From assembly GCA_017642585.1 (NCBI GenBank), contig JAGCOR010000017.1, positions 17,937-81,936 on the forward strand: a stretch of DNA of 64,000 bases. Direction: 5' to 3'. Shown here in pieces: positions 15,624-43,898 of the stretch (position 1 is the first letter of the stretch; each line of letters starts with the position of its first letter). The position numbers were made by a program, and so were the translations under genes. The DNA is from Alphaproteobacteria bacterium (GTDB lineage Bacteria; Pseudomonadota; Alphaproteobacteria; Rs-D84). Below the pieces are notes generated by a model that saw nothing but the letters and a program-made list of their open reading frames with translations, did not search any database and was not told the DNA's origin.

Positions 15624-15980
15624 TTGGTAAATAAAGATTCTGAATTTACGTTGGCGGTGGCAACTTTGGCGGCTGCAGCCATAGGTGCAAACCCAAAATT
15701 ATCTATGAAGGATGCCGTAAAACAGGCAACTGAGATATTGCGTGGCATTTCTTTGACCCCTGAACAAATCGCAGATTCTGTGACTGATGATGCAATTCAA
15801 TGTTTTGAAGACGGCACATGGCACGTCATGTTAAAGCGGTATATCAAAAGAAAGTTTAATTTAACCCCGCAACAATATTGTGAAAAATGGGGTTTGCCTT
15901 TGGATTATCCTTTCGTTGCATCAAAATATGCCAACAAACGTTCCAAGATTGCAAAGAAACATGGGTTCGGTAAAAAATAG
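15624..15980 (+). CDS. mucR: MucR/Ros-family transcriptional regulator with the zinc ligands lost
   Basis: The C-terminus LTPQQYCEKWGLPLDYPFVASKYANKRSKIAKKHGFGKK matches the Ros/MucR signature. The zinc-finger segment reads QCFEDGTWHVMLKRYIKRKF. TTG start with an AAAGGA RBS. Confidence 0.75.
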   Translation: MVNKDSEFTLAVATLAAAAIGANPKLSMKDAVKQATEILRGISLTPEQIADSVTDDAIQCFEDGTWHVMLKRYIKRKFNLTPQQYCEKWGLPLDYPFVASKYANKRSKIAKKHGFGKK

Positions 15981-15990
15981 GGTGCGTATT

Positions 15991-18006
15991 ATGAAAGTAT
16001 ATGTAAATATCGAAAATAAAAATTGGAAAAAATATAAAATAGATTTTGAAAAAATCGCCAATGCGGCGGTTTCTGCCGAACACAAAGATGCAGAGGTTTC
16101 AATTACATTGGTTGATGATAAAACAATTCGTAAATTAAACAGGGAATATCGCGGTTTTGATAAACCTACAAATGTGTTATCTTTTGAATTGGGTGATGAT
16201 GTTTTATTGGGTGATATTTTTATATCATTAGATACTGTGAAAAAAGAAGCGGATGCAGAAAACATATCTGTCGCGGAACATACTGCGCATATGATTGTTC
16301 ATGGAATTTTACATTTGCAAGGTTTTGATCATTTAACAGATCAAGAAGCCAAGGTTATGGAATCTAAAGAAATCAAAATATTAAAAAAATTGGGATATAA
16401 AAATCCTTATGCAGATGAAGATATTGGTTGCAGTGATGAATCTTGTTGTCCTGGCAAATTTATAACAAAATTAAAAAATATAAAAATACGTGAAAATGGA
16501 TTTTGGCAATATGTGTTATATGCTGTATTCGGCGGAATTGCTTCCTTTGGTTTCGCACCATTTTATTTATGGATGTTGTTTACGTTAGGTGTGGGCGGTG
16601 CATATTATTTAACAATTAAACAAACAAAGCATGTCAGTTTTATGAAATCTTGGTTGATAACATTTCCTTTCGGTGCGTTTTATGGGATGTTTATGTTTTG
16701 GTGGGTTTTGAATTCTATTTATGTTGTCCCGGAACTGGCGCGTCAATTTGCAATTTGGACAATACCAGGATTATTGGGAATCGGTTTGATTTGCGGAATT
16801 ATTTTGTCCCTGCCTTTTGCGGTTATTAGATATGTAAAGCGCAAACCGGCACCCAGGGCGATTTTGTTTGCTGCCACTTGGATGTTTGTTTTATGGTTGC
16901 GGGAATGGATTTTTACAGGTTTTCCATGGAATCCAGTATCAAATATAACTATGCATTTTCCAATGGTTGCTAATTCTATGGCGCTGTGGGGTGCATTGGG
17001 ATTGACTTTTGTTATTATTGGTTTGATTACTTCTTTGGTTGAAATTTTGAAAAACAAAAAATGCAAATCTTGTTGGGTTATATTTTTAATGTTTGTTTCT
17101 TTGTTCGTGGTTGGATGTGTTTATGGACATCACAATATGAAAAAAATTGATAATGTAAATATGGATAATTTGCCTTTGATTAGAATTGTGCAACCCGCGG
17201 AATCTGCCGTGTACAAAATGCCAAAGACAAGGGCAGAGGCACAACAACAGGCCGATCAAAAGGTTCGCGATTTATTTGTTTGGGCAACCAAAGACACAAC
17301 AAACAAACCTGATATTATTGTTTATCCAGAAACAACTTATCCATATGTGGTTGTAGATGATAAATTCCCATTGTCACACATATTAAATACAAATGTGGTT
17401 ATGGGTGTGAATCATTATGCAGACGGCAAAATGTATAACTCTATGGTTGTGGCAAACAAATCTGGTGTGATTGATAATTTATACAGCAAATCTCATTTGG
17501 TTCCGTTCGGAGAATATCGCCCATTTGGTGATATAATTCCAACCCCCGGACAATTGGAAGCAGGTAATGGTCCAGAATTGATAGTTATAAATACTCAACA
17601 CGGTGATTTCGTTTTTGCACCAGCGATTTGTTATGAAATTATATTTTCAGATTCTTTGATTCCAAATCGTATTACACCAAATGCAATTATCAATATTACA
17701 AATGATACTTGGTTTGGTTTAACACCGGGGGTATTTCAGCATCTGGATATGGTGAAACGTTATGCGATTGAATCTGGTGTTCCTGTTATCCGTGCGAATT
17801 ATTCGGGAATCAGCGCTTTTGTCGCCAGTGATGGAAATGTTGAATCATGGATGCCGGTTGGGCAAAATGGTTCTTTGGATGGGTTTGTGTGGGGTGCGCA
17901 TGAAACGCTGTACAGAAGATTAGGGCGAAATTTATGGATGATGATTATTTTAGCTTTTTCAATAATTGCTTCAATATCCATATCCGTATTTCAGAAGAAA
18001 GATTAG
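15991..18006 (+). CDS. ybeY-lnt: In-frame fusion of YbeY endoribonuclease and apolipoprotein N-acyltransferase Lnt
   Basis: The N-terminal ~140 aa are YbeY (HMIVHGILHLQGFDH zinc motif). A linker follows at 16411..16500. Then comes a full Lnt: multi-TM N-terminus, IVYPETTYP, SKSHLVPFGEY and APAICYEIIF, which together give the E-K-C triad. No stop and no Met occur at the junction. I chose ATG 15991 because 15880 would overlap mucR. Confidence 0.8.
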   Translation: MKVYVNIENKNWKKYKIDFEKIANAAVSAEHKDAEVSITLVDDKTIRKLNREYRGFDKPTNVLSFELGDDVLLGDIFISLDTVKKEADAENISVAEHTAHMIVHGILHLQGFDHLTDQEAKVMESKEIKILKKLGYKNPYADEDIGCSDESCCPGKFITKLKNIKIRENGFWQYVLYAVFGGIASFGFAPFYLWMLFTLGVGGAYYLTIKQTKHVSFMKSWLITFPFGAFYGMFMFWWVLNSIYVVPELARQFAIWTIPGLLGIGLICGIILSLPFAVIRYVKRKPAPRAILFAATWMFVLWLREWIFTGFPWNPVSNITMHFPMVANSMALWGALGLTFVIIGLITSLVEILKNKKCKSCWVIFLMFVSLFVVGCVYGHHNMKKIDNVNMDNLPLIRIVQPAESAVYKMPKTRAEAQQQADQKVRDLFVWATKDTTNKPDIIVYPETTYPYVVVDDKFPLSHILNTNVVMGVNHYADGKMYNSMVVANKSGVIDNLYSKSHLVPFGEYRPFGDIIPTPGQLEAGNGPELIVINTQHGDFVFAPAICYEIIFSDSLIPNRITPNAIINITNDTWFGLTPGVFQHLDMVKRYAIESGVPVIRANYSGISAFVASDGNVESWMPVGQNGSLDGFVWGAHETLYRRLGRNLWMMIILAFSIIASISISVFQKKD

Positions 18007-25238: not shown

Positions 25239-25308
25239 GTCTTTTTCCATTGATTTTTTATAATTATAAAGCAAAAATATAAATAATCAAACAGCGGAGG
25301 TATAAAAA

Positions 25309-25905
25309 ATGAGAAATAAAAAAAGAAGTTGGTTGTCCAGATTATTAGATATATTTTTTAGACCGAAGTATTTCTTCAGCAAATTGGTTGTTGATGGAAA
25401 AATGGAAGACGCCATGTTGCGCGCATTTATATGGGGGCTGATTGGTGGTATCGTTGTTTTGATTTTACATTTAATTCGTGGAAATGCTTTTACTGTATTT
25501 TCTTTGTTCAAAACATTTGTTGTTTTTCCGGTGATGGCGGTTGTTATGTTGTTCGTCTGTGCAGGGTTAATGATGTTGGTTTCTGAAATTACTTCTGGGG
25601 ACAGGGATTGGGAAATCGCGGTCAAAGGAATCGCATCTATATTCTTTGTTTATCCATTGGCTTTAGTTTTAAATGCATTGGCTTTTGATTGCAGATCTAT
25701 TTGGTTAATCAGTATGTTGACTGATTTATATATGCTGTTTTTGCTGTATAACATTGCAGTATATTGTTTACATGGTAAAAAAATCAGTGTGATTTTCGTG
25801 CTGATGGTTGGTGCTATGTTGTTGGCTGGAATATATTTGTCTGATTACAGAACGTTGTGGTTCTTGGTCAAAAATATACCGGCAACATTAACTTGTTTCT
25901 TTTAA
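25309..25905 (+). CDS. Polytopic membrane protein, Yip1-domain-like
   Basis: 198 aa with about 5 TM after a short basic N-terminus. The family assignment is tentative. Confidence 0.45.
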   Translation: MRNKKRSWLSRLLDIFFRPKYFFSKLVVDGKMEDAMLRAFIWGLIGGIVVLILHLIRGNAFTVFSLFKTFVVFPVMAVVMLFVCAGLMMLVSEITSGDRDWEIAVKGIASIFFVYPLALVLNALAFDCRSIWLISMLTDLYMLFLLYNIAVYCLHGKKISVIFVLMVGAMLLAGIYLSDYRTLWFLVKNIPATLTCFF

Positions 25906-25932
25906 CAAAAACCGCCATATTGGCGGTTTTTT
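25906..25932. terminator. Bidirectional rho-independent terminator, CCGCC/GGCGG family
   Basis: CAAAAA-CCGCC-atatt-GGCGG-TTTTTT. It sits between the convergent Yip1-like and porin-like genes. Confidence 0.8.
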
Positions 25933-26968: not shown

Positions 26969-27902
26969 CTTTGGTTCCTGAAATCATTTTTGGTTTGTTT
27001 TCGGCATCTGCCAAAATCGCTTCGCGTAATTTATTGTATGCGCGTTCTTCTATTTGGCGAACGCGTTCACGTGATATACCATATTTTTGAGATAAAGTTT
27101 CCAATGTAGCAGCAGGGTCAGATAAACGGCGTGCCCGCAATATTTCGCGGTCACGTTCTGGTAAATTTTCCAGATGTTTTCTTAATAATTCATACCCGCG
27201 ACGTTTAAATTCCAATTGTTCAACACTTTCTTCGATGCCTGTTCTGGAATCTGCCATATTTGATAAAATATCTTTGGCGTCAGAATCTGTATTTAATGGT
27301 GCATTCAAAGACATATCGCGTGCAGACATGCGTGTCGCGACATGTTCCACATCAGATTCAGGCACAGATAAATATTCGGCAATTTGCTTTGTTTGGTCGG
27401 CAGATAAAGTGTTATCCATTATACCCAAAGCGCGTTTTGCGCGGGTCAGGTTAAAAAATACGCGTTTTTGATTGGCGGACGATCCTAATTTTACAATAGA
27501 CCAATTATTTAGTATAGTTTCGTAAATTTCTGCCTTGATCCAAAACATAGCATATGTGGAAAACCTGAAACCGCGTTCAGGATCGAATTTTTGCAAGGCC
27601 TGCATCAATCCCATATTGCCACTGGCGATTAAATCAGATATAGGCAAACCATAATTTTTGAAATCATATGCCACAGATACCACCAATCTTAAATGTGAAC
27701 CAACCAGCTTTTCTGCGGCTATGTTATCGTGTTCTTTGGCCCATCTGGTCGCATATTCGTATTCCTGTTCTGCGGTCAAAATAGGGAATTGTTGAATTTC
27801 TGCGATGTATTTAGATAAACTGACATCGTCATTGTTCCCCAAAACGACACTGGGGGTCGAATATGTCTTTGATGGTAAAGTTGTCTTGATTTGCTTTTTC
27901 AT
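26958..27902 (-). CDS. rpoH: RNA polymerase sigma-32 factor RpoH
   Basis: Sigma70 regions 2-4 (FRFSTYAMFWIKAEI) with the RpoH-box-like NQKRVFFNLTRAKR. C-terminal HTH ISRERVRQIEERA. Confidence 0.9.
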   Translation of the reverse strand: MKKQIKTTLPSKTYSTPSVVLGNNDDVSLSKYIAEIQQFPILTAEQEYEYATRWAKEHDNIAAEKLVGSHLRLVVSVAYDFKNYGLPISDLIASGNMGLMQALQKFDPERGFRFSTYAMFWIKAEIYETILNNWSIVKLGSSANQKRVFFNLTRAKRALGIMDNTLSADQTKQIAEYLSVPESDVEHVATRMSARDMSLNAPLNTDSDAKDILSNMADSRTGIEESVEQLEFKRRGYELLRKHLENLPERDREILRARRLSDPAATLETLSQKYGISRERVRQIEERAYNKLREAILADAENKPKMISGTKDAK

Positions 27903-27955
27903 AACTTTTATAGTATAGCAATAAAATAGAAATTATCAAGACAAGAGGAATTATT

Positions 27956-28609
27956 ATGACAAGTATCTTACAAAGAAACAAAAATTTGAAACAACCTGTG
28001 AAGAAAACACGTGAAGAATATGCCGAAGATGCCCTGTATCGTGAAGTTTGGGAAGATGTAAATAATGAAAAAACTCAACAATTTTTGAAAAAATATTGGC
28101 GTTATATTGTTGGGGCTGCGTTGGGAATAATGATAGTTGTGTGCGGAATTCAAATTGGGTTGCGTATGCATCATGCCGCCCAGATGGCAACTGCAACCGT
28201 GTATGAAACAGCCGTTGAAGATGTCGATGCCAAAGCTTTAGCGAATTTGGCCAAAGATACGGGCGGGGCTATGTCAGATTTGGCCTTGTTCCAATCTTAT
28301 TTAATCGACAAAGATGTTAAAAAATTGGAAGATTTAGCAGAAAATGGTCATACACGTGATTTCAAAGATTTGGCCAGATTGCATATCGCATCTATGAATG
28401 GTGATAAAATGACTGCTGTTGATTTTGAAAAATATTTATCCAGCATGGATACAAAAAAATCACCTTTCTTTTATACTGCACGTTTGATGGTTGCCCAAAA
28501 ATATTTGGCAAATGGCGAAAAAGACAAAGCAGATAAAATTTTAGATGTCATTATAAATGATAAAAATGCACCTGCATCAATTTCTGCAAATGCTCAATTG
28601 TTGAAATAG
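27956..28609 (+). CDS. YfgM-like membrane-anchored TPR-like protein
   Basis: An N-terminal cytoplasmic stretch, one TM (YIVGAALGIMIVVCGIQIGL), then a helical-repeat periplasmic domain. It sits just upstream of a BamB-like gene, as yfgM does in other proteobacteria. Confidence 0.5.
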   Translation: MTSILQRNKNLKQPVKKTREEYAEDALYREVWEDVNNEKTQQFLKKYWRYIVGAALGIMIVVCGIQIGLRMHHAAQMATATVYETAVEDVDAKALANLAKDTGGAMSDLALFQSYLIDKDVKKLEDLAENGHTRDFKDLARLHIASMNGDKMTAVDFEKYLSSMDTKKSPFFYTARLMVAQKYLANGEKDKADKILDVIINDKNAPASISANAQLLK

Positions 28610-28618
28610 GGGTAAATT

Positions 28619-29341
28619 TTGAAAAAAATATTTTTGATTGTTTTAGCTGGGTTAATTGGGTGGGGCTGTTCAAAGCAGGACCCGATATTGCCTGGTGTTC
28701 GTCAAAATATTTTTGAAGATATCAATGTAAAATCTGAAAACAAGGAAATTCCTGAATTATCCAAAGATATAAAAAATATCTCCGGTGATTCAACATGTGA
28801 TTATCGCCAAGATTCTATGAATAATATTTGGCGTGGGGATAAAAAAGTATTTTCAGGATTTGCAACCGACAGTTTTGTGAAAAACAAACAATCCCCAATT
28901 TGTGAAGGTGGTTTCATTTATACTGGATTAACCACTGGCGAAGTAATCAAATTAAACCCATCAACGCAACAAATAGTTTGGGTGGCAGATGTTTTCCGTG
29001 CTTCAAATTTAATGGGGGGGGCATCTGTGGTTGATATAGTCGCCCATGTTGGTGTTGATAAAAATTTTGTTTATGCTGGTGGGTTGGGTGATTCGTTTTG
29101 TAAATTGAACAAATACAGCGGTGATAAGATTTGGTGTTTGAATATATCTGTGCCTGTTGATTTTATAATGGTTGATGATTACGCGTTTGTTGTTGGAACG
29201 GATAATATGTTGTATGCAATCAATACAAAATCGGGTAATGTGTATTGGAAGACAGAAATCAAGAAACAAATTAAACCTGGGTATGACGGAACAAATATAA
29301 CCGTCGGAAAACAGCGAATAAATTACAAAACAGGAAAATAA
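28619..29341 (+). CDS. Short PQQ-repeat (BamB-like) lipoprotein
   Basis: TTG start with an AGGGG RBS. Signal peptide ending GWGCS. Repeated beta-propeller-like motifs (FVYAGGLGDSFCKLNKYSGDKIW, LYAINTKSGNVYW). At 240 aa it is shorter than a canonical BamB. Confidence 0.55.
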   Translation: MKKIFLIVLAGLIGWGCSKQDPILPGVRQNIFEDINVKSENKEIPELSKDIKNISGDSTCDYRQDSMNNIWRGDKKVFSGFATDSFVKNKQSPICEGGFIYTGLTTGEVIKLNPSTQQIVWVADVFRASNLMGGASVVDIVAHVGVDKNFVYAGGLGDSFCKLNKYSGDKIWCLNISVPVDFIMVDDYAFVVGTDNMLYAINTKSGNVYWKTEIKKQIKPGYDGTNITVGKQRINYKTGK

Positions 29342-29383: not shown

Positions 29384-29989
29384 TTACCAAGTTGGTGCGT
29401 GATCGCCTTCTTTGATAATTGGTTGTTCGTCTTCCCAAACTGACAGGCCAGATTTCAAATCTGTTAATGTCATTTGCAGATAATATTCTACACGTGTATC
29501 AACAGATGAAAACCAACCAGATTGCAGTTTCAAATTTCTTTGCAACATTTTACCAGACAAAGACATATTTGGTGCAATCAATGTGCCGGTATTGGCAATT
29601 GTTTTTTGATCATATTCTTTGTCATTACGTAATGTACGAACATTGGAAGAGGTTGTATCTTCGCCACTGTAATTTGTTGCGATTTGAGCAGAGCCTGATT
29701 TCACTAAAGTCGTTCTAATTTTTTTAGTCAAAACATCTGTGTCAAAACGTTGTGCTGTATCGTTTTTAATATTGGCGATTGCAATCACAGGATCTTTTAC
29801 TTTTTTGAAAGCGCCACTTTCAATCATAGATTTTGTCATTTTTTCCGCCGTATTGGTCCAATCGCGGTATTCCAATTCCATGACATTTTGCATGCGGGCA
29901 ACATCGCTGGAATCGTTCAGATCAACCACGCGGGTTTCAGCACATGCGCACAGTGCTAAACATACTGCACAAGGTATCAATTTTTTCAT
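29384..29989 (-). CDS. lpoB: Penicillin-binding protein activator LpoB-like lipoprotein
   Basis: Lipobox LALCAC. IAIANIKNDTAQRFDTDVLTKKIRTTLVKSG and YYLQMTLTDLKSG match the LpoB (COG3417) pattern. Confidence 0.7.
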   Translation of the reverse strand: MKKLIPCAVCLALCACAETRVVDLNDSSDVARMQNVMELEYRDWTNTAEKMTKSMIESGAFKKVKDPVIAIANIKNDTAQRFDTDVLTKKIRTTLVKSGSAQIATNYSGEDTTSSNVRTLRNDKEYDQKTIANTGTLIAPNMSLSGKMLQRNLKLQSGWFSSVDTRVEYYLQMTLTDLKSGLSVWEDEQPIIKEGDHAPTW

Positions 29990-30010: not shown

Positions 30011-31246
30011 TTATTTCAAATTTATAAATTTTTTATCGGTTATTGTATTATGTTCACGAATATATATTAAATTATTATCTGAATTTTTCAATTTTAATTT
30101 TATATCGTCATCTATGAAATCGTTTTGTGTAATATTTTGTTTTGTTCTGTCAATGCGTTGAACATATATGTTCTTTGGCAAAGTTGCCCAGGTGCGAACA
30201 TCTGTGTTGGAAGATGTCGCAGTATAAACCGTTGATAACAGCCCCAACAAAGAGGCGGAATCACTGTGTGAATTATACATTGTCGCCTGCATTGCGGTTT
30301 TAGATATCGCAGATGTGTATGAACGTAAGATCTCATTTGTTCTGTATTCGTTGTATTCAGTTAAAAACATTTTATCAACATCTGCCAATAATTGTGAATT
30401 GGGTGGGGTGGGGGTTGATTGGTCGAAATAAGGTTCTGAAAAACTGAAATAAACCAGACCAATTTTTGGAACATAAAAACTGAAATCTTTTTCTTGTAGA
30501 CGTGGGGCAAATCCAGATTCATAAAAAACCCAAGTCGTGTTTTTTGGCTTTTTATGTTGTTGTGCCAATTTTAAATCTGTTTGTATAAAAGTATTATTCC
30601 CCATCATACCATTTGCGCGTTTAAGATAAATTTCGGCATTTTCAAAATCGCCATCGTTCAAAAAATAAATTCCAGATAAATACATTAATGCCGGATTCAT
30701 GATATCTGTGAATGCGGCCCAATCATTTTGATTTTTATCTAATATTTCCTGTAATTGAGAGTTTTTAGATAATTTGTCTTTGTTTTCTTCTATTAACTTT
30801 TTATATTCAATCGACATATTTTGTTGGCGATTATAAGATTGATTTATAACGACGCGAACATTCGACCAATCTTGCAGTGCCAACAAATTCCAAATTTGAT
30901 AATAAGATACAAACAAAGAATCCATCATGTATGGTTTATATGAATTGACCCCATTACCAAACAACAAACCAGATGTTTCGCGCAGGATAGACGAAGAGGT
31001 TTCGTGTAAATTTCTTTTGTTAAATTCTTCAAATGCCGCATCACTTTCGCTGAATTTATTTTCATGGAACAGGGCAGTTGCATCAATTAATAAATCAAGA
31101 TTATTTTCATTTTTTATATCTTTATCTTTGGTAACCGTTTCAAAATCGCCGTGTGAAAAACTTTTTTGAACATCATCCAGATGTGATTTTGTAACAGATG
31201 CACATCCTGATAACAGCAAACACAAAGTGATAAATTTGACGAACAT
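30011..31246 (-). CDS. COG3014-like lipoprotein, the usual partner of LpoB
   Basis: Lipobox LLLSGCAS. YKPYMMDSLFVSYYQIWNLLALQDWSNVRVVINQSYNRQQ resembles the conserved COG3014 core. Confidence 0.5.
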   Translation of the reverse strand: MFVKFITLCLLLSGCASVTKSHLDDVQKSFSHGDFETVTKDKDIKNENNLDLLIDATALFHENKFSESDAAFEEFNKRNLHETSSSILRETSGLLFGNGVNSYKPYMMDSLFVSYYQIWNLLALQDWSNVRVVINQSYNRQQNMSIEYKKLIEENKDKLSKNSQLQEILDKNQNDWAAFTDIMNPALMYLSGIYFLNDGDFENAEIYLKRANGMMGNNTFIQTDLKLAQQHKKPKNTTWVFYESGFAPRLQEKDFSFYVPKIGLVYFSFSEPYFDQSTPTPPNSQLLADVDKMFLTEYNEYRTNEILRSYTSAISKTAMQATMYNSHSDSASLLGLLSTVYTATSSNTDVRTWATLPKNIYVQRIDRTKQNITQNDFIDDDIKLKLKNSDNNLIYIREHNTITDKKFINLK

Positions 31247-31254: not shown

Positions 31255-33516
31255 CTATTTCAAAGGTTCCAAAATTTTAATTTCTTTGGTTTGTGGATTA
31301 TATATTTTTGGAACGCCATCATATCCCATAACTGCATGGTGAGAAGGAATCAAGAATTCAGGCAATGGGGACGCTTCACCCATAAGTGCTTTGGCGTGTA
31401 ATTTTTTCTGAACTTCGTTTGAATTGAGTATATGGAATTCTTGTTCCGCTTCTATTGGGCGGTGATACCAACCTTGATATAAGATCAACTGTTTTCCTTT
31501 TTCGATTTTCATAATGTCGTATGGTGAATATAATGGGGATTCTTTTGTTTCTTCGACTTCTTTGCCGTCTTTGTCTTTCTTCTTTTCTTTCTTCTTTTCC
31601 ATACCAATCATTTCAGAAAACTTTTTCGCGGTTTCAAAATCGTTTTGACGCAAAACAACTTTTGCTGCGGTTGTGGAAATAATTGTAGCGGCCGCATCTG
31701 CACCATATCTTTCTTGAATCTGGTGAATATCCTGGCCAATAATTAAATAGGATACTTTGCATCCACGTCCTAAATCTGGACCTTGGATAACCGCGTCCAA
31801 TTTTTGCATTTTTGGCATTTCATCCAAAGCAAACAACACAGGGTATGGCCCAACTTTTTTGCCATCAACGATTGTGCCCGGGGTGTGTGCCAATAAATAA
31901 TTAGACATCAATTCAATAAATATAGCGGTAATTGGGTTGACCGCTTGGGCATCAACCAGGTTCACAGACAAATAAACACTGACAGGTTTAACCTTGCCGT
32001 CCCTTGGGTCTTTCAATCCGCGTAAATCTTCAAAGTGGAAATCAGAATGGCTGGTTCTGTTGCGAACAGCGGCATTACGGAATATTGCCAAACCTTCGAT
32101 CATTGTTGATAAAATAGATCCACGTTCTTTATCTGGGGTATTTGCTAATTGGGTTAATTCAGATACAGAACGGCTGGCGTATGCGTAACGACGTGCTTCG
32201 TCCACGGCGCCCAATAACAAATCTTTCATTGGATCTGCCATCATAACCATTTGATCGCCTTGCTTTCTGCGTTCGGCCATTTGTTCTGCGATTGCAACCT
32301 GGCTGGTGGTAATCCAATCAAGAATCATAGATAAAGATGCCTCTTTGCCACGCCATGAATCTGGGATGTGTTCCCATGTTCCAACGTGCACATAATTCAT
32401 CGCATTTAATTCGCCGTTCTTTAACAGGGAATAGGCCGCATACGCATTTGGATCATTTATCATAGATAAATAATAATCACCCAACACATTGGCATCATCC
32501 GTATTAAAGGTTCCATTGTTTATACGTGCAAAGAAATAATCATCTGCTTTGGCACGTTCTACTTTGGATACAATAAAGTTAATAAGACCAGACAGCCCCG
32601 CACGTCCTGTGTTTGCCCAGTGGGGATCTTGGACGCTGTCTTTGACTAAAACCTTGCTGATTGCGTCGATATACAAATCACGTTGTTCGGGTGCAAAAGG
32701 AACATGTTCTGGCGATAAAGGATTCCATGATGGGTAATAAATACCTTTTTCTGGTTCATCCTGACCCGCCCAATTCAGAATAAATACATGACTGACCGTC
32801 GCACGATACCCAGAAGTAACCTGTTTCAATTCTGGTTTAGGATCGTTTATAATCATAGAAACACTATCACAATCTAAAATTGTTGGAATAATAACCCCCT
32901 GGGTTTTACCGGTTCCCGGAGGCGCCAAACACAAAGCAGACAAAGGTTCGTCAAACATTAATGGAGTTAATTTTCCTTTGTATTTAAAATACCCCAACAC
33001 CATCATGAAGCCTTTGAACAAACCTTCCTTGTTTTTGAAATCAGAAGCCATTTTTTTAATATCATCTGCGGTTGCTTTACGGGCAGATGTTTTATCAAAA
33101 GTATCTTTACCCGCAGGGTTAAATTCAAGTTTCACAGAATCATCAACCAAGAAGAAATATGCAATAAGTGGTATAATAGGTAATATACATGGATAATCAG
33201 GATGAGATAATATGCGGGTCAGCCAAAATGGTATTTCAGCGATAACCGATAAACCACCCGTCAGGGCAGCATTTCTTAAAAATATCAAAGACCAATGTTC
33301 TGTGGCGGGGCCCCAACCATAGCGCCATATATGTTCCGCAATGAAAGATAAACCAAACATCAACGCGCACAACAACCAAATCAACACAGACCAACGTATA
33401 TTCCAGAAATCACGTGCAACGGGCAGTTGCTCGTGTTCTTTATATGCTGCTGAATCAAAGATTTTTAAACCTTTGCCAGAACCAGATAAAGAGAAAATGT
33501 TGAACTTTGTTGCCAT
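31255..33516 (-). CDS. Type IV secretion coupling protein (VirD4/TraG/TraD family ATPase)
   Basis: N-terminal TM helices. Walker A LAPPGTGKTQGVIIPT and Walker B-like VLFALDEMPKM, plus LIIGQDIHQIQERYG. K/E-rich insert EKKKEKKKDKDGKEVEETKE. The start is either 33516, which lies 7 nt after a TGATATAAT motif, or 33555. Confidence 0.8.
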   Translation of the reverse strand: MATKFNIFSLSGSGKGLKIFDSAAYKEHEQLPVARDFWNIRWSVLIWLLCALMFGLSFIAEHIWRYGWGPATEHWSLIFLRNAALTGGLSVIAEIPFWLTRILSHPDYPCILPIIPLIAYFFLVDDSVKLEFNPAGKDTFDKTSARKATADDIKKMASDFKNKEGLFKGFMMVLGYFKYKGKLTPLMFDEPLSALCLAPPGTGKTQGVIIPTILDCDSVSMIINDPKPELKQVTSGYRATVSHVFILNWAGQDEPEKGIYYPSWNPLSPEHVPFAPEQRDLYIDAISKVLVKDSVQDPHWANTGRAGLSGLINFIVSKVERAKADDYFFARINNGTFNTDDANVLGDYYLSMINDPNAYAAYSLLKNGELNAMNYVHVGTWEHIPDSWRGKEASLSMILDWITTSQVAIAEQMAERRKQGDQMVMMADPMKDLLLGAVDEARRYAYASRSVSELTQLANTPDKERGSILSTMIEGLAIFRNAAVRNRTSHSDFHFEDLRGLKDPRDGKVKPVSVYLSVNLVDAQAVNPITAIFIELMSNYLLAHTPGTIVDGKKVGPYPVLFALDEMPKMQKLDAVIQGPDLGRGCKVSYLIIGQDIHQIQERYGADAAATIISTTAAKVVLRQNDFETAKKFSEMIGMEKKKEKKKDKDGKEVEETKESPLYSPYDIMKIEKGKQLILYQGWYHRPIEAEQEFHILNSNEVQKKLHAKALMGEASPLPEFLIPSHHAVMGYDGVPKIYNPQTKEIKILEPLK

Positions 33517-33523
33517 GCCTGAT

Positions 33524-33538
33524 ATTATATCATAAAAA
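33524..33538 (-). promoter_or_regulatory. Extended -10 promoter motif, exact TTTTTATGATATAAT
   Basis: Minus-strand exact copy. The TATAAT ends 7 nt before the ATG at 33516 of the coupling-protein gene, which suggests a possible leaderless transcript. Confidence 0.45.
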
Positions 33539-33569
33539 GAAACCTTTTTATACATAAAGATTTAAAAAA

Positions 33570-38948: not shown

Positions 38949-39146
38949 ATGAGATGGGGTTTTTGGGAAATAATTCTGATTGTTTTTTTGGTTGTGTTGT
39001 TATTCGGCAGTGCCAAGATACCAGGCATGTTAAGAAATCTTGCCGAAGGCGTTAAAGTTTTCAAAAAAGAAATGGAAACTAAAAAAGAAGCACCTAAACA
39101 CGACACAAAGAAAAAGGCTGTAAAAAAGCCTGTTAAGAAAAAATAA
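38949..39146 (+). CDS. tatA: Twin-arginine translocase subunit TatA/E
   Basis: 65 aa. WEIILIVFLVVLLFGSAKIPGMLRNLAEGVKVFKKE is a TM plus amphipathic helix with the FG hinge. Confidence 0.85.
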   Translation: MRWGFWEIILIVFLVVLLFGSAKIPGMLRNLAEGVKVFKKEMETKKEAPKHDTKKKAVKKPVKKK

Positions 39147-39174
39147 AAATAGTGGTTAATAACTTGTTTTTATG

Positions 39175-39206
39175 CGGTTGGGATTTTATATCTCAACCGT
39201 TTTTTT
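39175..39206 (+). terminator. Rho-independent terminator after tatA
   Basis: CGGTTGGG-attttatat-CTCAACCG (one G-U pair) followed by TTTTTTT. Confidence 0.6.
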
Positions 39207-39254
39207 GTCTTTTTTTGATTGGGGTTTTGTGGTAAAATTGAAAGAATGAGAGAG

Positions 39255-42200
39255 ATGATGAAAAAAGTATTGTTTTTTGCTTTTTTATCGGTTTGTTTGT
39301 CGTGCGATTTTGCATTTGCTGCAAGGTGTGTTCCTACAACAACTTCGAATGGGTCTCAAAATGAATATTTATTCCCAAACCAAGACTCTAAAAATAGGAG
39401 AAAGAATGTAATGATTTGTGGTGGCAGATCTGATGAGTCTTGTCCGTCAAATGCCTATGTCGGAATTATACATACTATAGATGAAAGTCATTATCGGGGT
39501 GATGAAAAAATAACAGTAGCTGCTGTGTATAGATGTGATACCGATGGTGGACGCAGTTGGGAATTTGCAGGGTATGATGAATTTAAAAGGGACAACCCGA
39601 ATAGTATAATTACATCATGTGCGGGGTTTGATGGATATAAATGTAATTATGCTTTGAACAATGATGTAAACAAGGTTGTTTGTTGTCTGAACAGTTTGAT
39701 ATGTGCCAACCCAAAAATGGCAGATCGAATGATATGGGTTGGTTGTGGTGTGGAGCAGAATGGATGCATACAATCTAATAAATATTGGTATAATGGAAAA
39801 TGTAATGATAATCCACAATCTGCACAATCGACTTCTCAATCTGCACCGCAACAGCAAGCACCGCAACAAACTTCTTCAAATTCTGGTCAAACCATGAGAA
39901 ATGTTTCTGTTGTTCCAGGAAGCGCATGCGGAATTGCCCAGATATCCAGCAATCCTGTGGAAAACACTAAACACGCCAAAAATCTGCATACACCAGGGCG
40001 TTATTTAATTTGCATGAACCCAAACAATTTATATCGTCCAGCGGCAGGATCCAGCAGTCGCTATGTTTATGATCAATTTAATTGTTCAGATAATACGTTG
40101 TTATATGATGATTCTGAAAACAAAATTATAAAATGTTTATATTCTACTGGTGGATGGGCAGAAGGAAATCATGGTAATTTACCAACATGTGCACAAGATG
40201 GCCAAGGAAAAACCCAAGCTGGAACAATCAGCATATCTGGTGGTGAAATTGTTATATATGGTGACAAGATAACTTTTTCTTCTGGAAATGTTAATTCACA
40301 TACGTGGAAAAATATATGCAAAGTACAACGTTCTGCTGCACCAGAAACAAAAAATTATTCTGGGGTTATAAAAGATAAAGATACAGGCGAACCGTTGCAA
40401 TCCGTTAACATATCGATACCAGGTACAACCAGTGGGTGTACAACAGATGCAGAAGGAAAATTTGGAAATGGTGATAATTATTGCAGATTGACATCAGATA
40501 CTGTGACGATTTCATATGTTGGGTATGAAACAATCACTGGTAAAAAACTGGCATTGACAGGTAATGACATTAAAATGAAACAAGTTGCTACCCAATTAAA
40601 TGCGACTGATGTTGTTGCTGTAGATAATAAGACAATTTGCACTAACAATAATGGAACATGGGATGAACAAAACAATACATGCAGATGTCCAAGTAATAAA
40701 CCCAGATGGGAAGGAACTGGGGCTAACCCTGGCTGTTTATCAACTTGTACATATTTAGGCAGACATCCAAACCAAGCTTCACCAGAACGTTTGGCATGTT
40801 GCAGGGCGGGCAGTGCGACAAAATGGGAAGGCAATGATACCCAGGGTAATTGTATTTGTATTGATGCCAGCAGACATGTTGATGCGTCTAAACAATGGGA
40901 CGGCACGACTTGTGCTGTGGTAAATAATCCACCAACACCAGAAGAACAATGTACTGCGTTGGGAGATTTTGTCAGATGGGATGCCACGACATCACAATGT
41001 GTTTGCACGGATGAAACAAAAAGATTAGATGGTACACAATGTATTCCTGCAAACAGCGGTGGACCTGAATTAACACCAGAACAAGAATGTACCGCATTGG
41101 GAGAAATTGTCAGATGGGATGCCACGACATCACAATGTGTTTGCGTTGATGAAACAAAAGTATTAAATAATGGTCAATGTGTTGACAAAGATGCACCTGC
41201 AACCCCAGTAACCCCAGAAAAAACACCAGAAGAAATTTGTAACGAATTAGGTGCTGATGTCGCGTTGTGGGAAGGTGGCGTATGTAAATGCAAAGATCCA
41301 AAGAAAGAATATCAAAATGGTCAATGTGTTGATAAACCAGAACCTGTCAGAACACCACAAGATGCGTGTAATGATTTGGGTGAAATAGCTGTTTGGCAAA
41401 ATAATCAATGTGTATGCGTAGATGAAGTGAGTGATTTTGTATATGATGAAGCAACCAAAACAGGTAAATGTGTTGAAAACGAAAAAAAGAAAAAAGCCAA
41501 GGCGTTAAAAGATAAAACAGATGCGTATAAAAATGCAAAAGACAAAGAACAATCTTTAGCGAACAGAACTTTGACCGCTGCAACCACTGCCGCAACCGGA
41601 TTGGGAATGATGGAATTAATGATGGGCAAAGCGGAACAGAAAGCGGATGCAGATGCCGAACAAGATATGGCGGCATACATGGCAACAATGCGTTGCACAT
41701 ATGCGGGCGGTAAATCTGTAAAGGCCGGCCCCGAAGAAATAGAATTACCTGGTGGAAACGATGGTAAATTGATGTCATACCGCAGTGAATATATAGCATT
41801 GGCAAAAAGTTTGAAAGAACGCAAAACAGCCATGGATATGTTACCAGGTATAGAAAGTGAAGAGATATTAGATAAAGCAGAAATGGGATTATACGATGAT
41901 GAAAACAAAGGTATAGAAAGTGGTACATATGCATCATTGTATAGAGCGAAACAGGGCAGTGAAGAAGACCAAAAGAAGATAGATGCTGACAAAGAAAAAT
42001 CTGCTAAACGAGTTAAATATGGTGCGACTGCGTTGGCGGCGGGTGCTGCGGTTGGTGTTGTTGGTAACAGTTTAATAAATGGTAAATTGGGTGAAAAACT
42101 GAAAGCAGCGAAAGAAGCCAAAAAAGAAAAGAAAAGCAAAAGCCCGAATGTAAAAGAAGATAATCGTCCTGTTATCAAACACGCACCAAATCCAGAAAAT

Positions 42201-43046
42201 ATGAAATCAGAAGCACCTGTTATAACAGATAGCGGTTCATCAGATTCTGGACAGGATAATGGTGTTGCAAATGTTGTTGGTGTTTTAATTGGAACAACAG
42301 GTAGTGGTGGGGCAAGTGCTACAACTCCGTCTGGTGGCAATGTTGGTGGTACAAGTCCAACAGTAGAAAGTCAAAGAATAAGTTACGATGAACCTGATGT
42401 AGATGGAACAAAATGGAGTGAATCTCAATATTTACAATGTTTTGCACATTTCTTCCCGAATGATAGATATTCTTCTAACTTAAGATCTTATTGGGCTAAA
42501 TCACATAACAATCAATATTGCAGTGGCTATACTGGTGGTAAATATATATATGATTTCAAGAAAAACCCAAATCCATGTCCACAACAAAAATTTAGATCTT
42601 TGAATGCTGGTGAATGGGAAATTCAAATAAGAAACGGTAATAAATCTGTCAAGGGTATAGCTGTTTGCAATAATACTGCTGGTGGTCAGGAGGATGAATT
42701 GCGCGATAATGTTGATGCACACACGGACAGCGGTAAACATTGTTGGTGCAAGATAACCCAGACAGATTTGAATGATTGTTTGGTTACCCAGAAATTCTCA
42801 TGGGAATACAGGGGAGAGTTTGGACTTGTGGATGCAGAAGACGTGGAATGGTTTAATGACAACAAGACAAGTTCATATGTAGATCTATATCCTGCAGGAT
42901 ATTATCAAGAAGGGCAAAATAGTTGTTTGTGGGAATGTGCTGATGCATGTGCATACCATTTGTTAGATTATGGTCGTCATCGTCAAAGACAAATGCATGG
43001 TGTGCCACAGATAGTAGATTTTGTTAAAAAGTATAATAATATGTAA
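39255..43046 (+). CDS. Giant cysteine-rich mosaic exported protein of unknown function
   Basis: Uninterrupted ORF. The signal peptide is MMKKVLFFAFLSVCLSCDFAFA, and the start is uncertain among 39219 TTG, 39246, 39255 and 39258. Segments in order: an N-terminal Cys-rich domain, a Q/S linker, a CarboxypepD_reg-like segment (40355..40585), EGF-like Cys repeats including 138-bp tandem units (40938..41480), K-rich segments, a Gly/Ala hydrophobic module (41560..42130), and a Cys-rich C-terminal domain. Confidence 0.85.
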   Translation: MMKKVLFFAFLSVCLSCDFAFAARCVPTTTSNGSQNEYLFPNQDSKNRRKNVMICGGRSDESCPSNAYVGIIHTIDESHYRGDEKITVAAVYRCDTDGGRSWEFAGYDEFKRDNPNSIITSCAGFDGYKCNYALNNDVNKVVCCLNSLICANPKMADRMIWVGCGVEQNGCIQSNKYWYNGKCNDNPQSAQSTSQSAPQQQAPQQTSSNSGQTMRNVSVVPGSACGIAQISSNPVENTKHAKNLHTPGRYLICMNPNNLYRPAAGSSSRYVYDQFNCSDNTLLYDDSENKIIKCLYSTGGWAEGNHGNLPTCAQDGQGKTQAGTISISGGEIVIYGDKITFSSGNVNSHTWKNICKVQRSAAPETKNYSGVIKDKDTGEPLQSVNISIPGTTSGCTTDAEGKFGNGDNYCRLTSDTVTISYVGYETITGKKLALTGNDIKMKQVATQLNATDVVAVDNKTICTNNNGTWDEQNNTCRCPSNKPRWEGTGANPGCLSTCTYLGRHPNQASPERLACCRAGSATKWEGNDTQGNCICIDASRHVDASKQWDGTTCAVVNNPPTPEEQCTALGDFVRWDATTSQCVCTDETKRLDGTQCIPANSGGPELTPEQECTALGEIVRWDATTSQCVCVDETKVLNNGQCVDKDAPATPVTPEKTPEEICNELGADVALWEGGVCKCKDPKKEYQNGQCVDKPEPVRTPQDACNDLGEIAVWQNNQCVCVDEVSDFVYDEATKTGKCVENEKKKKAKALKDKTDAYKNAKDKEQSLANRTLTAATTAATGLGMMELMMGKAEQKADADAEQDMAAYMATMRCTYAGGKSVKAGPEEIELPGGNDGKLMSYRSEYIALAKSLKERKTAMDMLPGIESEEILDKAEMGLYDDENKGIESGTYASLYRAKQGSEEDQKKIDADKEKSAKRVKYGATALAAGAAVGVVGNSLINGKLGEKLKAAKEAKKEKKSKSPNVKEDNRPVIKHAPNPENMKSEAPVITDSGSSDSGQDNGVANVVGVLIGTTGSGGASATTPSGGNVGGTSPTVESQRISYDEPDVDGTKWSESQYLQCFAHFFPNDRYSSNLRSYWAKSHNNQYCSGYTGGKYIYDFKKNPNPCPQQKFRSLNAGEWEIQIRNGNKSVKGIAVCNNTAGGQEDELRDNVDAHTDSGKHCWCKITQTDLNDCLVTQKFSWEYRGEFGLVDAEDVEWFNDNKTSSYVDLYPAGYYQEGQNSCLWECADACAYHLLDYGRHRQRQMHGVPQIVDFVKKYNNM
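40938..41480 (+). repeat. In-frame tandem repeats (138 bp = 46 aa) inside the giant gene
   Basis: Units 40938..41075 and 41076..41213 are highly similar and share the exact 36-mer GTCAGATGGGATGCCACGACATCACAATGTGTTTGC (40971..41006 and 41109..41144). Two more diverged units follow, up to about 41480. The protein motif is C-x3-G-x4-W-x5/7-C-x-C-x-D-x9/13-C. Confidence 0.9.
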
Positions 43047-43056
43047 ATTTAGATAT

Positions 43057-43090
43057 AAAAAAACACCGCCAGATTTGGCGGTGTTTTTTT
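43057..43090. terminator. Bidirectional rho-independent terminator, CCGCC/GGCGG family
   Basis: AAAAAAAC-ACCGCC-agattt-GGCGGT-GTTTTTTT. It sits between the convergent giant gene and dksA. Confidence 0.8.
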
Positions 43091-43098: not shown

Positions 43099-43530
43099 TT
43101 ATTTGCGTTTTTGTTCGTATTCTTCTTGCTCTTCGATAGTCATTGTTGCCAATGGACGTGCCAACATTCTCTGCAAACCGATTTCATCACCGGATAAAAT
43201 GCTGTATCCATATGTGCCATTTTCAATGCGTTCAATCGCAGCGTTTATTTTCTGTAACAATTTAGAATTACGTTCAGATATACGCAGATTTAATGTGATT
43301 TCTTGTTCGGCAGATGCCTGGTCCTGTTCGTCGCCAACGCCGGCGATTTCATTTTTTTCAGCCATTCTTACATCACTTAACACAGAATCATGATCGCTTA
43401 ATAATTCTTCGCGTTGTGTGTTTAATAATTGATAAAAATACGCCAAATGTTCAGGACACATATAAGGTTCTGTCTTTTTTGGTGTGTATTTTGGTGGTAA
43501 TTCTATATTTTTAAAATTCTTTTTTGCCAT
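43099..43530 (-). CDS. dksA: RNA polymerase-binding factor DksA, Cys4-less variant
   Basis: Coiled-coil tip GDEQDQASAEQE and C-terminal GTYGYSILSGDEIGLQRMLARPLATMTIEEQE. This is the DksA pattern with all four zinc cysteines replaced. Confidence 0.8.
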   Translation of the reverse strand: MAKKNFKNIELPPKYTPKKTEPYMCPEHLAYFYQLLNTQREELLSDHDSVLSDVRMAEKNEIAGVGDEQDQASAEQEITLNLRISERNSKLLQKINAAIERIENGTYGYSILSGDEIGLQRMLARPLATMTIEEQEEYEQKRK

Positions 43531-43531
43531 T

Positions 43532-43852
43532 TTACGATGCCTTTAATTCTTTGACCCATTGTGTAAGGGTTTCTTCGTCCATTAAACCTGTGCGAGCTTC
43601 TTTTAATTCGCCATCTTTGAAAGCCAATACGCTTGGAATGCTGCGGATGCCGAATTTCGCCGCTGTTCTTCTGTTTGATTCATCTATTTCAAATTTCACA
43701 AAATTTACATCTGGTTCGTCTTCTGATACTGTTTCAAAAATAGGTCCAAACATTTGACATGGTCCACACCATGCAGCCCAAAAATCTACCAATGTTAATC
43801 CAGAGGATACCAACGATTCAAACGTTTCGTCATTAGCATGTTTTAAAGCCAT
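43532..43852 (-). CDS. trxA: Thioredoxin
   Basis: Active site WAAWCGPCQM. AAGGAG lies 7 nt upstream of the ATG at 43852; the track ORF starts earlier, at 43882. Confidence 0.92.
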   Translation of the reverse strand: MALKHANDETFESLVSSGLTLVDFWAAWCGPCQMFGPIFETVSEDEPDVNFVKFEIDESNRRTAAKFGIRSIPSVLAFKDGELKEARTGLMDEETLTQWVKELKAS

Positions 43853-43870
43853 TTTTTTCTCCTTATGTTG

Positions 43871-43898
43871 TTGATATTTCATTTGAGTTTATTATAAT
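43871..43898 (+). promoter_or_regulatory. Sigma70-type promoter upstream of sufS
   Basis: TTGATA, a 16-nt spacer, then TATAAT. It lies 27 nt upstream of the sufS ATG, in the divergent trxA/sufS intergenic region. Confidence 0.4.

Follow-up and report, generated by a model that had tools for sequence, protein, structure and literature searches.

The 64,000-nt stretch of DNA analysed here, referred to as the window (positions 17,937 to 81,936 of contig JAGCOR010000017.1, assembly GCA_017642585.1, from an alphaproteobacterium of the GTDB lineage Rs-D84), carries a giant gene among housekeeping genes, and the question raised by this locus is what kind of protein it would provide to an organism with a very small genome. 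Such a 3.8-kb gene takes up about 0.4% of a genome of this type and the family to which it belongs, with several paralogues per genome, represents a large investment. Counted from an upstream TTG, the open reading frame (ORF) spans 39219..43046 on the forward strand; from the ATG at 39255 it encodes a product of 1263 amino acids in a reading frame unbroken over 3.8 kb, which in the NCBI model (MBO7053156.1, 1262 amino acids) starts one codon downstream. It is the largest ORF of the window, the second-largest having 766 amino acids, and its product contains 59 cysteine residues (4.7%). An initial annotation made from the sequence alone had described an exported, cysteine-rich mosaic protein with no recognisable catalytic domain, and this description is supported by the predicted signal peptide, the cysteine content and searches of Pfam and NCBIfam. 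On balance, the giant protein is probably a Sec-exported, disulfide-rich, strain-variable modular envelope protein anchored by a new module, and it would likely form a cell-surface fibril for attachment to a partner or a variable coat. What the present analysis itself showed within this reading is that the protein belongs to a taxonomically restricted family, that its variability forms a gradient, that module and C-terminal domain are under purifying selection, that the module is homogenised within genomes and that both flanks of the module have an extracytoplasmic character.

As judged from homology and gene order, the giant protein is the largest and a positionally conserved member of what appears to be a lineage-specific multigene family, which is defined by a module at amino acids 743-960 (41481..42134) with a conserved core of ~190 residues (~755-947) and a single cysteine. 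In an exhaustive profile search of 1.84 billion representative proteins, at least 969 clusters passed E≤1e-3, of which 592 also passed E≤1e-30, and with few exceptions the match was confined to profile positions ~602-830, equivalent to amino acids ~743-960 of the giant protein; hundreds of proteins match this segment at E-values of 1e-50 to 1e-110. A word-indexed search returned five close full-length relatives only (73-100% identity). None of the full-length homologues was found to belong to a characterised adhesin or toxin family, a point that the initial annotation had asked to be checked. Of 258 retrieved proteins, 253 contain the module, and its identity among otherwise dissimilar proteins amounts to 55-73%. 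Its position varies, being near the C-terminus of signal-peptide proteins of 240-380 amino acids, in the middle of proteins of 600-1260 amino acids and at the N-terminus of giants of 1800-2400 amino acids. In 99 sequences, 19 columns are invariant and 41 nearly so, and the giant protein carries the invariant columns. Thus, the Lys-rich stretches with two hydrophobic segments listed in the initial annotation are no low-complexity charged spacer and actually contain the most conserved part of the protein; the flanks of the module are not conserved across the family, and the Lys-richness is peculiar to the giant protein.

Two helices enclose the core of the module. Helix 1 is very conserved, polar and rich in Ala, Thr and Gly (EQSLANRTLTAATTAATGLGMMEL; consensus EQSLANRTLTA.TTAATGIGGMELAQGLAEQKAD). 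It is followed by an acidic core of ~130 amino acids with a single invariant cysteine (C814) and the motifs ELPGGN, PGIESEEILDK, GLYDDEN and SLYRA as well as RC.Y. Helix 2 is a hydrophobic helix with glycine in heptad spacing (YGATALAAGAAVGVVGNSLINGKLG; invariant G189, G196 and G203 in module numbering), which ends in LINGKLG and leads into a basic tail. The AlphaFold2 (AF2) model of the module comprises helices and a beta-hairpin, at a predicted local distance difference test score (pLDDT) of 72.8, with 83-88 in the core and ~60 in both Ala/Gly-rich helices. When this model was compared with PDB and BFVD by Foldseek, no match at E<0.7 was obtained and the lists consisted of generic long-helix proteins. 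The module segment of the giant protein matches no Pfam family at E≤0.1 and nothing in NCBIfam or PDB. Scans of 99 family members matched 96 Pfam families (E≤0.1) and 76 NCBIfam families, and the statements made here on these scans cover the 25 most frequent families of each; the commonest weak Pfam match was UCR_TM, the Rieske transmembrane helix, in 20 members (best E=9.5e-4). No relative of the module was found among the IMG/VR viral contigs. Because of this and of its surroundings, which are housekeeping genes, the giant gene would seem to be neither mobile nor viral.

A second conserved part is the C-terminal domain (CTD; amino acids 1036-1263, 42360..43046 including the stop codon), for which family alignments revealed 10 invariant cysteines and the motifs CWCK[IL]T.TDL..CL.TQKFSW and C.W.C...C.Y.L.DYG...R..HGVP. 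It has no Pfam or PDB match. The CTD occurs also in stand-alone genes for proteins of ~380 amino acids composed of signal peptide, hydrophobic helix, coil and CTD (P0256-8, P0084), and in a protein of 238 amino acids (P0138). According to these database comparisons, module and CTD appear to be two new domains missing from current databases. Just a sub-motif of ~80 amino acids, C..L..GEW.V.F.YG.I.G...C..T.G ... CWC, is contained in the family members P0089 (amino acids 586-665) and P0054 (amino acids 17-100), on account of which the CTD may be composite, with a smaller mobile core.

The remaining domains are arranged in the order in which they had been listed in the initial annotation. The protein starts with a predicted Sec-type signal peptide (amino acids 1-22, MMKKVLFFAFLSVCLSCDFAFA followed by A; 39255..39320), which was recognised from a hydropathy value above 1.5 on the Kyte-Doolittle (KD) scale over amino acids 1-20 and a crude -3/-1 rule. 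Simple rules alone also indicate n-, h- and c-regions and an AFA/A site with cleavage after amino acid 22, and a signal peptide is kept in all five orthologues. Inspection of the giant signal peptide revealed neither a twin-arginine motif nor a canonical lipobox. Tat export, an idea suggested by the adjacent tatA gene, was rejected for the reason that the signal peptide has KK and no twin arginine, and the adjacency of the two genes is thus probably not functional. A lipoprotein was judged unlikely, as LSVC and CLSC are poor lipoboxes and cleavage at C14 would leave an odd number of cysteines, while the AFA/A site leaves 12.

The signal peptide is followed by a hypervariable head with 12 cysteines and no Pfam match (amino acids 23-190, 39321..39824) and by a Q/S-rich linker (amino acids 191-222, 39825..39920), the DNA of which is conserved in most orthologues and forms the 3' edge of the variable head. 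Next comes a strain-specific insert domain of 143 amino acids with 6 cysteines (amino acids 223-365, 39921..40349), again with no Pfam match. The only part assignable to a known family is, as had been stated in the initial annotation, the CarboxypepD_reg-like beta-sandwich with 2 cysteines (amino acids 366-455, 40350..40619). It is matched by CarbopepD_reg_2 (PF13715) with 45.4 bits against a gathering cut-off of 32.2 (E=8.1e-12, amino acids 369-449, profile positions 2-81 of 88), which alone passes the threshold and from which the NCBI name of MBO7053156.1 derives; Pfam, NCBIfam and PDB sequences, searched with the whole protein and with each segment, gave no family other than CarboxypepD_reg. 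In PDB nothing was found below E=0.09, and the weak matches were isolated N-terminal extension domains of TonB-dependent and SusC-type receptors. The sandwich resembles the N-terminal extension domains of TonB-dependent receptors of the SusC/RagA type (PF13715, PF13620), but it accounts for only ~80 of the 1263 residues, and the giant protein possesses neither a plug nor a 22-strand barrel: the receptor model TIGR04056 reached 33.2 bits compared to a cut-off of 368.25, and only the ~90 residues of the sandwich aligned, to profile positions 3-88 of 981. From its sequence, the sandwich would be a generic Ig-like spacer that does not define the protein.

The sandwich is succeeded by a cysteine-repeat stalk (amino acids 456-742, 26 cysteines, 40620..41480) built of six four-cysteine units of the type C...W...C-x-C...C. 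These lie within amino acids 462-739 if an extra unit at amino acid 662, found by eye only, is counted; the last four are ~46 amino acids long, with a period of 138-150 nt. When the protein was scanned with the expression C-x(3-8)-W-x(3-10)-C-x-C-x(8-18)-C, this matched 6 times, with an overlap between two matches at amino acids 515/516, compared to 0.03 matches expected in shuffled sequences; four-cysteine units of this type are also present in 46-77 of 259 family proteins. The initial annotation had spoken of EGF-like repeats and of a eukaryote-like, possibly horizontally acquired mimic. The cysteine pattern is real, and it shares the C-x-C...C spacing with the second half of EGF domains; besides, the lineage may be associated with hosts or protists. 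That the repeats would be EGF modules acquired from a eukaryotic host is nevertheless highly improbable. Neither the whole protein nor amino acids 456-742 alone match an EGF or other eukaryotic Pfam family at E≤1, so that the term EGF-like would best be taken as a description of cysteine spacing only; likewise, the repeat region has no PDB match, and no PDB chain with an EGF domain was found at E≤10. Those homologues that are named by source are, among the matches listed, all proteins of alphaproteobacterial metagenome-assembled genomes (MAGs), and with a GC content of ~0.39 the gene resembles the window (0.33-0.42). Between the module, which follows the stalk, and the CTD lies a variable linker, K-rich at first and then G/S-rich (amino acids 961-1035, 42135..42359), with indels in the orthologue alignment.

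A gradient of variability runs along this chain. Across five strains, the flanks of the gene are 93-99% identical at the nucleotide level, while the head-coding region 39326-39960 shows 43-60% identity and is unalignable in three strains; in the Q/S linker the identity profile recovers, and in the rest of the gene most 150-nt windows are 76-97% identical. Even in the closest strain, which is 99% identical in the flanks, there is a local rearrangement and the insert of 429 nt is lacking. With respect to the head protein, P0002 is 88%, P0005 32% and P0004 ~23% identical to the giant protein, and P0003 has no significant match. Three or four allele types of the head can be distinguished, all with 10-12 cysteines, of which those of P0003 and P0004 are at most ~28% identical to anything. 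This hypervariability as well as the stand-alone CTD genes had been overlooked in the initial annotation. The insert, listed there as a region of unknown type, is specific to the strain: it is absent from P0002-P0005, where ~11 linker residues take its place, and a search for relatives in 258 family proteins, in 87 loci and in the JGI metagenome contigs found none. At the genus level, a comparable picture emerges from three loci of GTDB genomes in which a module gene directly follows SPOR-TatA (L060, L070, L082), the pre-module regions of which are quite different (211, 646 and 491 amino acids with 7, 57 and 44 cysteines, respectively).

The rates of synonymous substitution (dS) are 1.3-3.2 in the head, compared to 0.13-0.32 in four flanking genes and 0.55-1.15 in the CTD. 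The ratio of nonsynonymous to synonymous rates (dN/dS, omega) is 0.26-0.62 in the head, where synonymous sites are saturated, 0.5-0.9 in the linker, 0.15-0.49 in the stalk, 0.08-0.15 in the module and 0.07-0.18 in the CTD. Purifying selection on module and CTD is strong. For the head, positive selection was considered and was not demonstrable by dN/dS in view of these omega values and the synonymous saturation; values above 1 were obtained in some pairs only, for the 21-26-codon segments of signal peptide and Q/S linker. The divergence pattern indicates that the heads would be old alleles, maintained or imported into a conserved backbone by recombination, and not the outcome of a burst of point mutations or ongoing positive selection. 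The raised dS of the CTD hints that recombination may have taken place there, too.

Recombination is also suggested by the module itself. Its DNA is 90% identical (median of 33 pairs) between paralogues of one genome versus 71% between genomes (1574 pairs), and many within-genome pairs reach 92-97%. Such homogenised genes would be paralogues and not split copies of one gene, because their upstream regions differ. From these values, the similarity within genomes would be a signature of gene conversion or recent duplication, and it is plausible that the attached domains are reshuffled with the module as homology block. In about 20 of 78 loci the contig ends inside the module, which is far above chance (3' ends in L054, L058, L060, L065-L071, L076, L078-L082 and L084; 5' ends in L034, L056 and L061). 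The breaks are best explained as an effect of near-identical repeats on short-read assemblies; accordingly read, the family would be a recurrent cause of assembly breaks, and the gene counts of these Enterousia-type MAGs would be underestimates.

Contigs of related MAGs that end within the module, along with the internal repeats of the giant gene, might also be taken as a sign that the giant ORF itself is a chimera or the product of collapsed repeats in a metagenome assembly, a concern raised in the initial annotation as well. This explanation is extremely improbable. A second, independent European Nucleotide Archive assembly (281-kb contig, protein P0259) encodes the same protein with 2 differences in 1263 amino acids, the 143-aa insert included; four orthologues from other samples (P0002-P0005) have architecture and synteny in common with it; and the frame is intact across 3.8 kb. 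Moreover, since the stalk repeats are merely 65-85% identical to each other as DNA, the cysteine repeats do not seem to have been collapsed. The gene order ThrRS, SPOR, TatA, giant gene, convergent DksA and Trx, and finally SufS is kept in four other assemblies.

Other members of the family come and go in the genomes compared. L025, on one contig of a Candidatus Enterousia sp. MAG, contains two members in tandem (2530-4071 and 5920-6630), the module DNA of which is 91% identical. In L019, likewise from a Ca. Enterousia sp. MAG, a member of 746 amino acids (1462-3699) is located between homologues of 24799-25904 and 25930-28716, which are adjacent in the window, and in L066 and L067 a member follows the homologue of window positions 27610-29330. 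As members of the family are inserted between stretches that adjoin each other in the window, the family seems to be dynamically gained and lost, and its members would represent presence/absence polymorphism in a conserved backbone.

The taxonomic distribution of the family is narrow. Its source names, among the matches listed, read without exception 'MAG: Alphaproteobacteria bacterium'. A scan of GTDB species representatives revealed 78 module loci in 53 genomes from rumen, reticulum, faeces and human gut, nearly all of them alphaproteobacterial and many labelled Candidatus Enterousia; three loci have other labels, namely one Clostridia and two Muribaculaceae. Distant members (33-43% identity) were found in a few other MAGs of gut Alphaproteobacteria or 'Rickettsiales'. 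The Muribaculaceae-labelled contigs L073 and L074 bear the module, that of L073 being 94.7% identical at the nucleotide level to that of L072 from an alphaproteobacterial MAG; this is probably the result of mis-binning of the contigs or of a wrong label on the MAG. In housekeeping stretches, the window shares 75-81% nucleotide identity with loci of Enterousia and related MAGs, and the source organism would by this comparison be a Ca. Enterousia-like gut bacterium of the order Rs-D84 with a strongly reduced genome. The former placement among intracellular bacteria is replaced by this gut group, and the proposed eukaryotic ancestry of the protein has been abandoned, given that no eukaryotic domain was found and that the homologues are almost all from alphaproteobacterial MAGs. 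Members of the Enterousia/Rs-D84 group are uncultured and widespread in rumen and gut; they lack respiration, standard transporters for sugars, amino acids and peptides, and most biosyntheses, and their glycolysis is incomplete (PMC12306168). With genomes below 1 Mb, they are thought to be partner-dependent (PMC12306168, PMC13196213). A literature search provided general genomic accounts of Enterousia/Rs-D84 only and no description of the module family.

The arrangement of the giant protein in the cell envelope was approached by KD hydropathy, cysteine parity and the partner domains of the paralogues. In every domain other than the module, which has one cysteine, the cysteine counts are even (head 12, insert 6, sandwich 2, stalk 26, CTD 10). 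Among 189 complete family members, exactly one module cysteine is found in 185; the cysteine-containing regions after the module have even counts in 82 of 86 cases and those before it in 71 of 96, and the lower of these figures probably reflects the crude cut of the signal peptide. Because of the even counts, both flanks of the module look disulfide-bonded and extracytoplasmic. In at least some members the C-terminal flank would be periplasmic, since an OmpA_C domain is present there: in P0150 the module is followed by cysteine repeats and the peptidoglycan-binding OmpA_C (Pfam E=8.5e-17), and four short members match the OmpA-like model pdsO of NCBIfam. The N-terminal partners of the module in paralogues include trypsin-like proteases (P0074, P0082, P0152), Listeria-Bacteroides repeats (Flg_new; P0024, P0049, P0056), CarboxypepD_reg and cysteine-rich regions with up to 60 cysteines. 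In giants of 2000 amino acids, the part after the module holds additional cysteine-rich sequence and hydrophobic segments as well as a Kdo/WaaP-type kinase and the weak signature of a SprT-like zincin.

A single-pass topology in the inner membrane with the C-terminal side in the cytoplasm was rejected in view of the even post-module cysteine counts and the location of OmpA_C after the module. In the best 19-residue KD window, helix 1 has a median of 0.98 and reaches the transmembrane threshold of 1.6 in none of 99 members; helix 2, with a median of 1.60, lies at the border and reaches the threshold in 52 of 99, and the equivalent helix of the stand-alone CTD proteins is clearly hydrophobic (1.79). 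Because helix 1 is polar and the gradient of variability runs from tip to base, in the favoured arrangement helix 2 would anchor the protein at or within the outer membrane, the N-terminal portion facing outwards and the C-terminal portion lying in the periplasm. Two other arrangements remain, namely an inner-membrane hairpin of the two module helices, the core of the module then being cytoplasmic, and a role of the helices in oligomerisation instead of membrane insertion.

The hairpin arrangement would give the family a different meaning. Helices 1 and 2 would span the cytoplasmic membrane, the acidic core would bind a conserved partner in the cytoplasm and the cysteine-rich flanks would be periplasmic, so that the family would comprise envelope-organising or sensing proteins and not surface proteins. 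One module cysteine in 185 of 189 members between evenly counted flanks is what a reducing compartment between two oxidising ones would produce, the core is bracketed by two Ala/Gly-rich helices exactly where the AF2 confidence is low, OmpA_C after the module is compatible with it, and the neighbouring genes SPOR, TatA, PBP and LpoB are concerned with envelope and division. It is held to be rather doubtful all the same. Helix 1 with its conserved N, R, T, E and Q is too polar, as is evident from the KD values given above; the stand-alone CTD proteins have a single hydrophobic helix after the signal peptide, which would bring a CTD with 10 cysteines into the cytoplasm; hypervariability of a periplasmic tip between strains would be hard to explain; and trypsin and Listeria-Bacteroides-repeat partners are typical of surface or secreted proteins.

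If the protein is instead anchored at the outer membrane, its assembly can be envisaged as follows. The module would be a common base on which different extracytoplasmic domains are mounted N-terminally and often C-terminally, too. From tip to base, the giant protein would consist of variable head, insert, Ig-like sandwich, six-unit stalk, module, linker and CTD, and helix 2 would most likely hold it in or at a membrane, preferably the outer one. On the periplasmic side, the CTD would bind either the cell wall or a conserved partner, a place taken by OmpA_C in some paralogues. The exposed head would mediate strain-specific attachment to a partner such as a host, a protist or another microbe, or it would act as an antigenically variable coat in immune evasion. 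Diversity would arise in two ways, through the replacement of head alleles and through recombination or gene conversion, by which members would exchange sequence via the module. Members bearing trypsin domains would be anchored proteases, useful to a scavenging organism. Of the role proposed in the initial annotation, adhesion or interaction with a host, surface or partner interaction would be kept as the most plausible part, and the mimicry is unsupported.

Several observations weigh against this reading. Surface exposure, outer-membrane anchoring and an adhesion or coat function are inferred from sequence. A single alpha-helix through the outer membrane would be unusual, and the analysis revealed no route of export across this membrane. 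The lone invariant cysteine and the otherwise cysteine-free acidic core of the module would also suit a cytoplasmic loop, and the Kdo/WaaP-type kinase located after the module in some giant paralogues (P0119) would need ATP, even though those proteins have further hydrophobic segments. The dN/dS values are below 1 in every segment of reliable size. In a tblastn search of the 64-kb window no second family member or silent cassette was found, so that recombination of the giant gene itself is only inferred. Finally, the AF2 model of the module is of only moderate confidence (predicted template modelling score 0.47) and that of the CTD, calculated from a 10-sequence alignment, is unusable (pLDDT 37.7).

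A comparison with known surface proteins illustrates which elements would be familiar and which would be new. The variable surface families Msp2/P44 of Anaplasma, Vlp/Vsa of Mycoplasma, Opa of Neisseria and RIFIN/STEVOR of Plasmodium share with the present family the many paralogues in a small genome, a conserved block beside variable exposed regions, a homogenisation of blocks that suggests gene conversion, and the replacement of tips at strain level. However, there is no kinship in sequence or fold: RIFIN was matched at insignificant levels, by 3 of 99 members in Pfam (E=0.024) and in the Foldseek comparison (E=5.5), the giant gene is not accompanied by an array of silent cassettes, the variation is between strains and not within a clone, and the conserved block is helical and unclassified. 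The overall logic of a conserved block combined with a hypervariable exposed region is thus familiar; module and CTD are new.

Two-part proteins of the OmpA type (PF00691) come close with regard to the base, as P0150 contains first the module and then OmpA_C, and the CTD of the giant protein occupies the place of the latter. The giant protein differs from them in that it has no OmpA_C, a large N-terminal ectodomain and an anchor that is predicted to be helical and not an 8-strand beta-barrel. That helical segments can be embedded in the outer membrane is established for glycine-zipper lipoproteins with two transmembrane segments. With these proteins, such as SlyB/Pcp and the 17-kDa antigen of Rickettsia (PF13488, PF13441, PF05433), the module shares the regular invariant glycines of its Gly/Ala-rich helix 2, but its glycine spacing is heptad (G-x6-G) and not GxxxG, a canonical lipobox is missing and there is a conserved core of ~130 amino acids; none of the families PF13488, PF13441, PF05433 and PF13436 is among the 25 most frequent of the 96 Pfam families matched by the 99 members at E≤0.1. 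Adhesins of reduced-genome Alphaproteobacteria are exemplified by the Sca proteins of Rickettsia. In type V adhesins in general, a signal peptide is followed by a long passenger, which is modular, repetitive and variable at its tip, and by a conserved anchor, as is the case here; in contrast to them, no autotransporter or intimin beta-barrel was found with Pfam and NCBIfam, the anchor is predicted to be alpha-helical and a further 300 residues follow it. Those 300 residues after helix 2 are also unlike C-terminal sorting signals, and NCBIfam models of the latter (LPXTG, PEP-CTERM, GlyGly-CTERM) did not match the giant protein at E≤1 and are not among the 25 most frequent of the 76 families matched by the 99 members. 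In short paralogues, a use of the module resembling that of a sorting signal is possible, considering that it is located at most 40 amino acids from the C-terminus in 104 of the 253 members.

A further explanation to be weighed is that the family would be made up of secreted, membrane-inserting effectors or toxins. The module would then be a helical-hairpin translocation or pore unit, in the manner of colicin pore domains, ClyA-type toxins or the translocators of type III secretion systems, which would enter the membrane of a partner in order to deliver or expose the attached domains or to extract nutrients. This would suit an organism with no standard nutrient transporters and a presumed dependence on a partner, and Ala/Gly-rich helices of weak hydrophobicity could first be translocated by Sec and enter a membrane afterwards; trypsin, the Kdo/WaaP-like kinase and the weak SprT-like zincin in paralogues as well as a VirD4-type coupling protein encoded in the window would fit in with it. 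ClyA, Cry6Aa and colicin E9 do appear in the Foldseek lists, but at E>5 and a TM-score below 0.2, which is not significant, and neither sequence nor structure is significantly similar to any toxin or translocator. The layout of polymorphic toxins (Rhs, CdiA, MafB) is not encountered, either: it is the N-terminal part, the cysteine-rich head, that is variable, while the C-terminal domain is conserved, no toxin domain was detected, and the next gene downstream is the convergent dksA, with no immunity-like gene. Since, in addition, OmpA_C in paralogues argues for retention at the envelope of the producer and a Sec signal peptide is atypical of substrates of type IV secretion systems (T4SS), an effector function is considered clearly unlikely.

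Returning to the anchored surface protein, an extended version of this reading may be put forward tentatively, although we regard it as rather improbable. According to it, the module would be a new alpha-helical device for anchoring and display in the outer membrane, in which a single glycine-heptad helix, probably oligomerised, crosses the membrane, the ectodomains being outside and CTD or OmpA_C in the periplasm. The module would double as the gene-conversion block by which heads are reshuffled, and the whole would constitute a self-contained system of antigenic or partner variation in a sub-megabase gut symbiont. If true, display at the outer membrane would offer a first molecular handle on how Enterousia/Rs-D84 bacteria attach to a partner and live off it. 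Apart from this extended version, the pattern of a new module, a hypervariable tip, concerted evolution of the module and paralogues with a protease or a wall-binding domain would be the signature of molecules involved in partner contact or immune evasion. The family provides a first testable handle on the contacts of this widespread, uncultured gut lineage with its surroundings, and concrete targets for localisation, partner pull-downs and strain typing.

With respect to the immediate surroundings, the giant gene has terminators of its own on both sides, as had been noted in the initial annotation. Directly upstream, the tatA gene for a TatA protein of 65 amino acids (38950..39147, forward strand), which has its counterpart in the corresponding position of the orthologous loci, is closed by its own intrinsic terminator (39174..39210, forward strand; hairpin 39174-39200 and T-run), composed of an 11-pair stem and a T-run according to terminator scan and sequence; by this terminator, the giant gene would be made a separate transcription unit. 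Downstream, at ~43056..43090, giant gene and dksA (43099..43530, reverse strand), which are convergent, would share a bidirectional intrinsic terminator. Its hairpin AAAAAAACACCGCCAGATTTGGCGGTGTTTTTTT, with A-run, stem CACCGCCA/TGGCGGTG and T-run, was read from the sequence, in which alone it is visible, being missing from the list of the consensus terminator scan. Next to the locus lies a thioredoxin gene (43532..43882, reverse strand), the product of which has a WCGPC motif and no signal peptide and would for this reason be a TrxA of the usual cytoplasmic kind rather than a disulfide oxidase of the periplasm.

Two observations concern more distant parts of the window. An ORF of 708 amino acids (15880..18006, forward strand) contains the endoribonuclease YbeY (amino acids 50-171) in frame with an apolipoprotein N-acyltransferase (LNT_N, amino acids 218-380; CN_hydrolase, amino acids 502-654) and could be a gene fusion or two genes with no stop codon between them. 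Furthermore, a T4SS coupling protein of the VirD4/TraG type (T4SS-DNA_transf, E=6e-50) is encoded at 31255..33555 on the reverse strand in this lineage with genomes below 1 Mb. It is located beside the genes for a protein of 411 amino acids with no family match (30011..31246, reverse strand) and an LpoB-like lipoprotein (29384..29989, reverse strand), and the same trio is found in the related strain L001.

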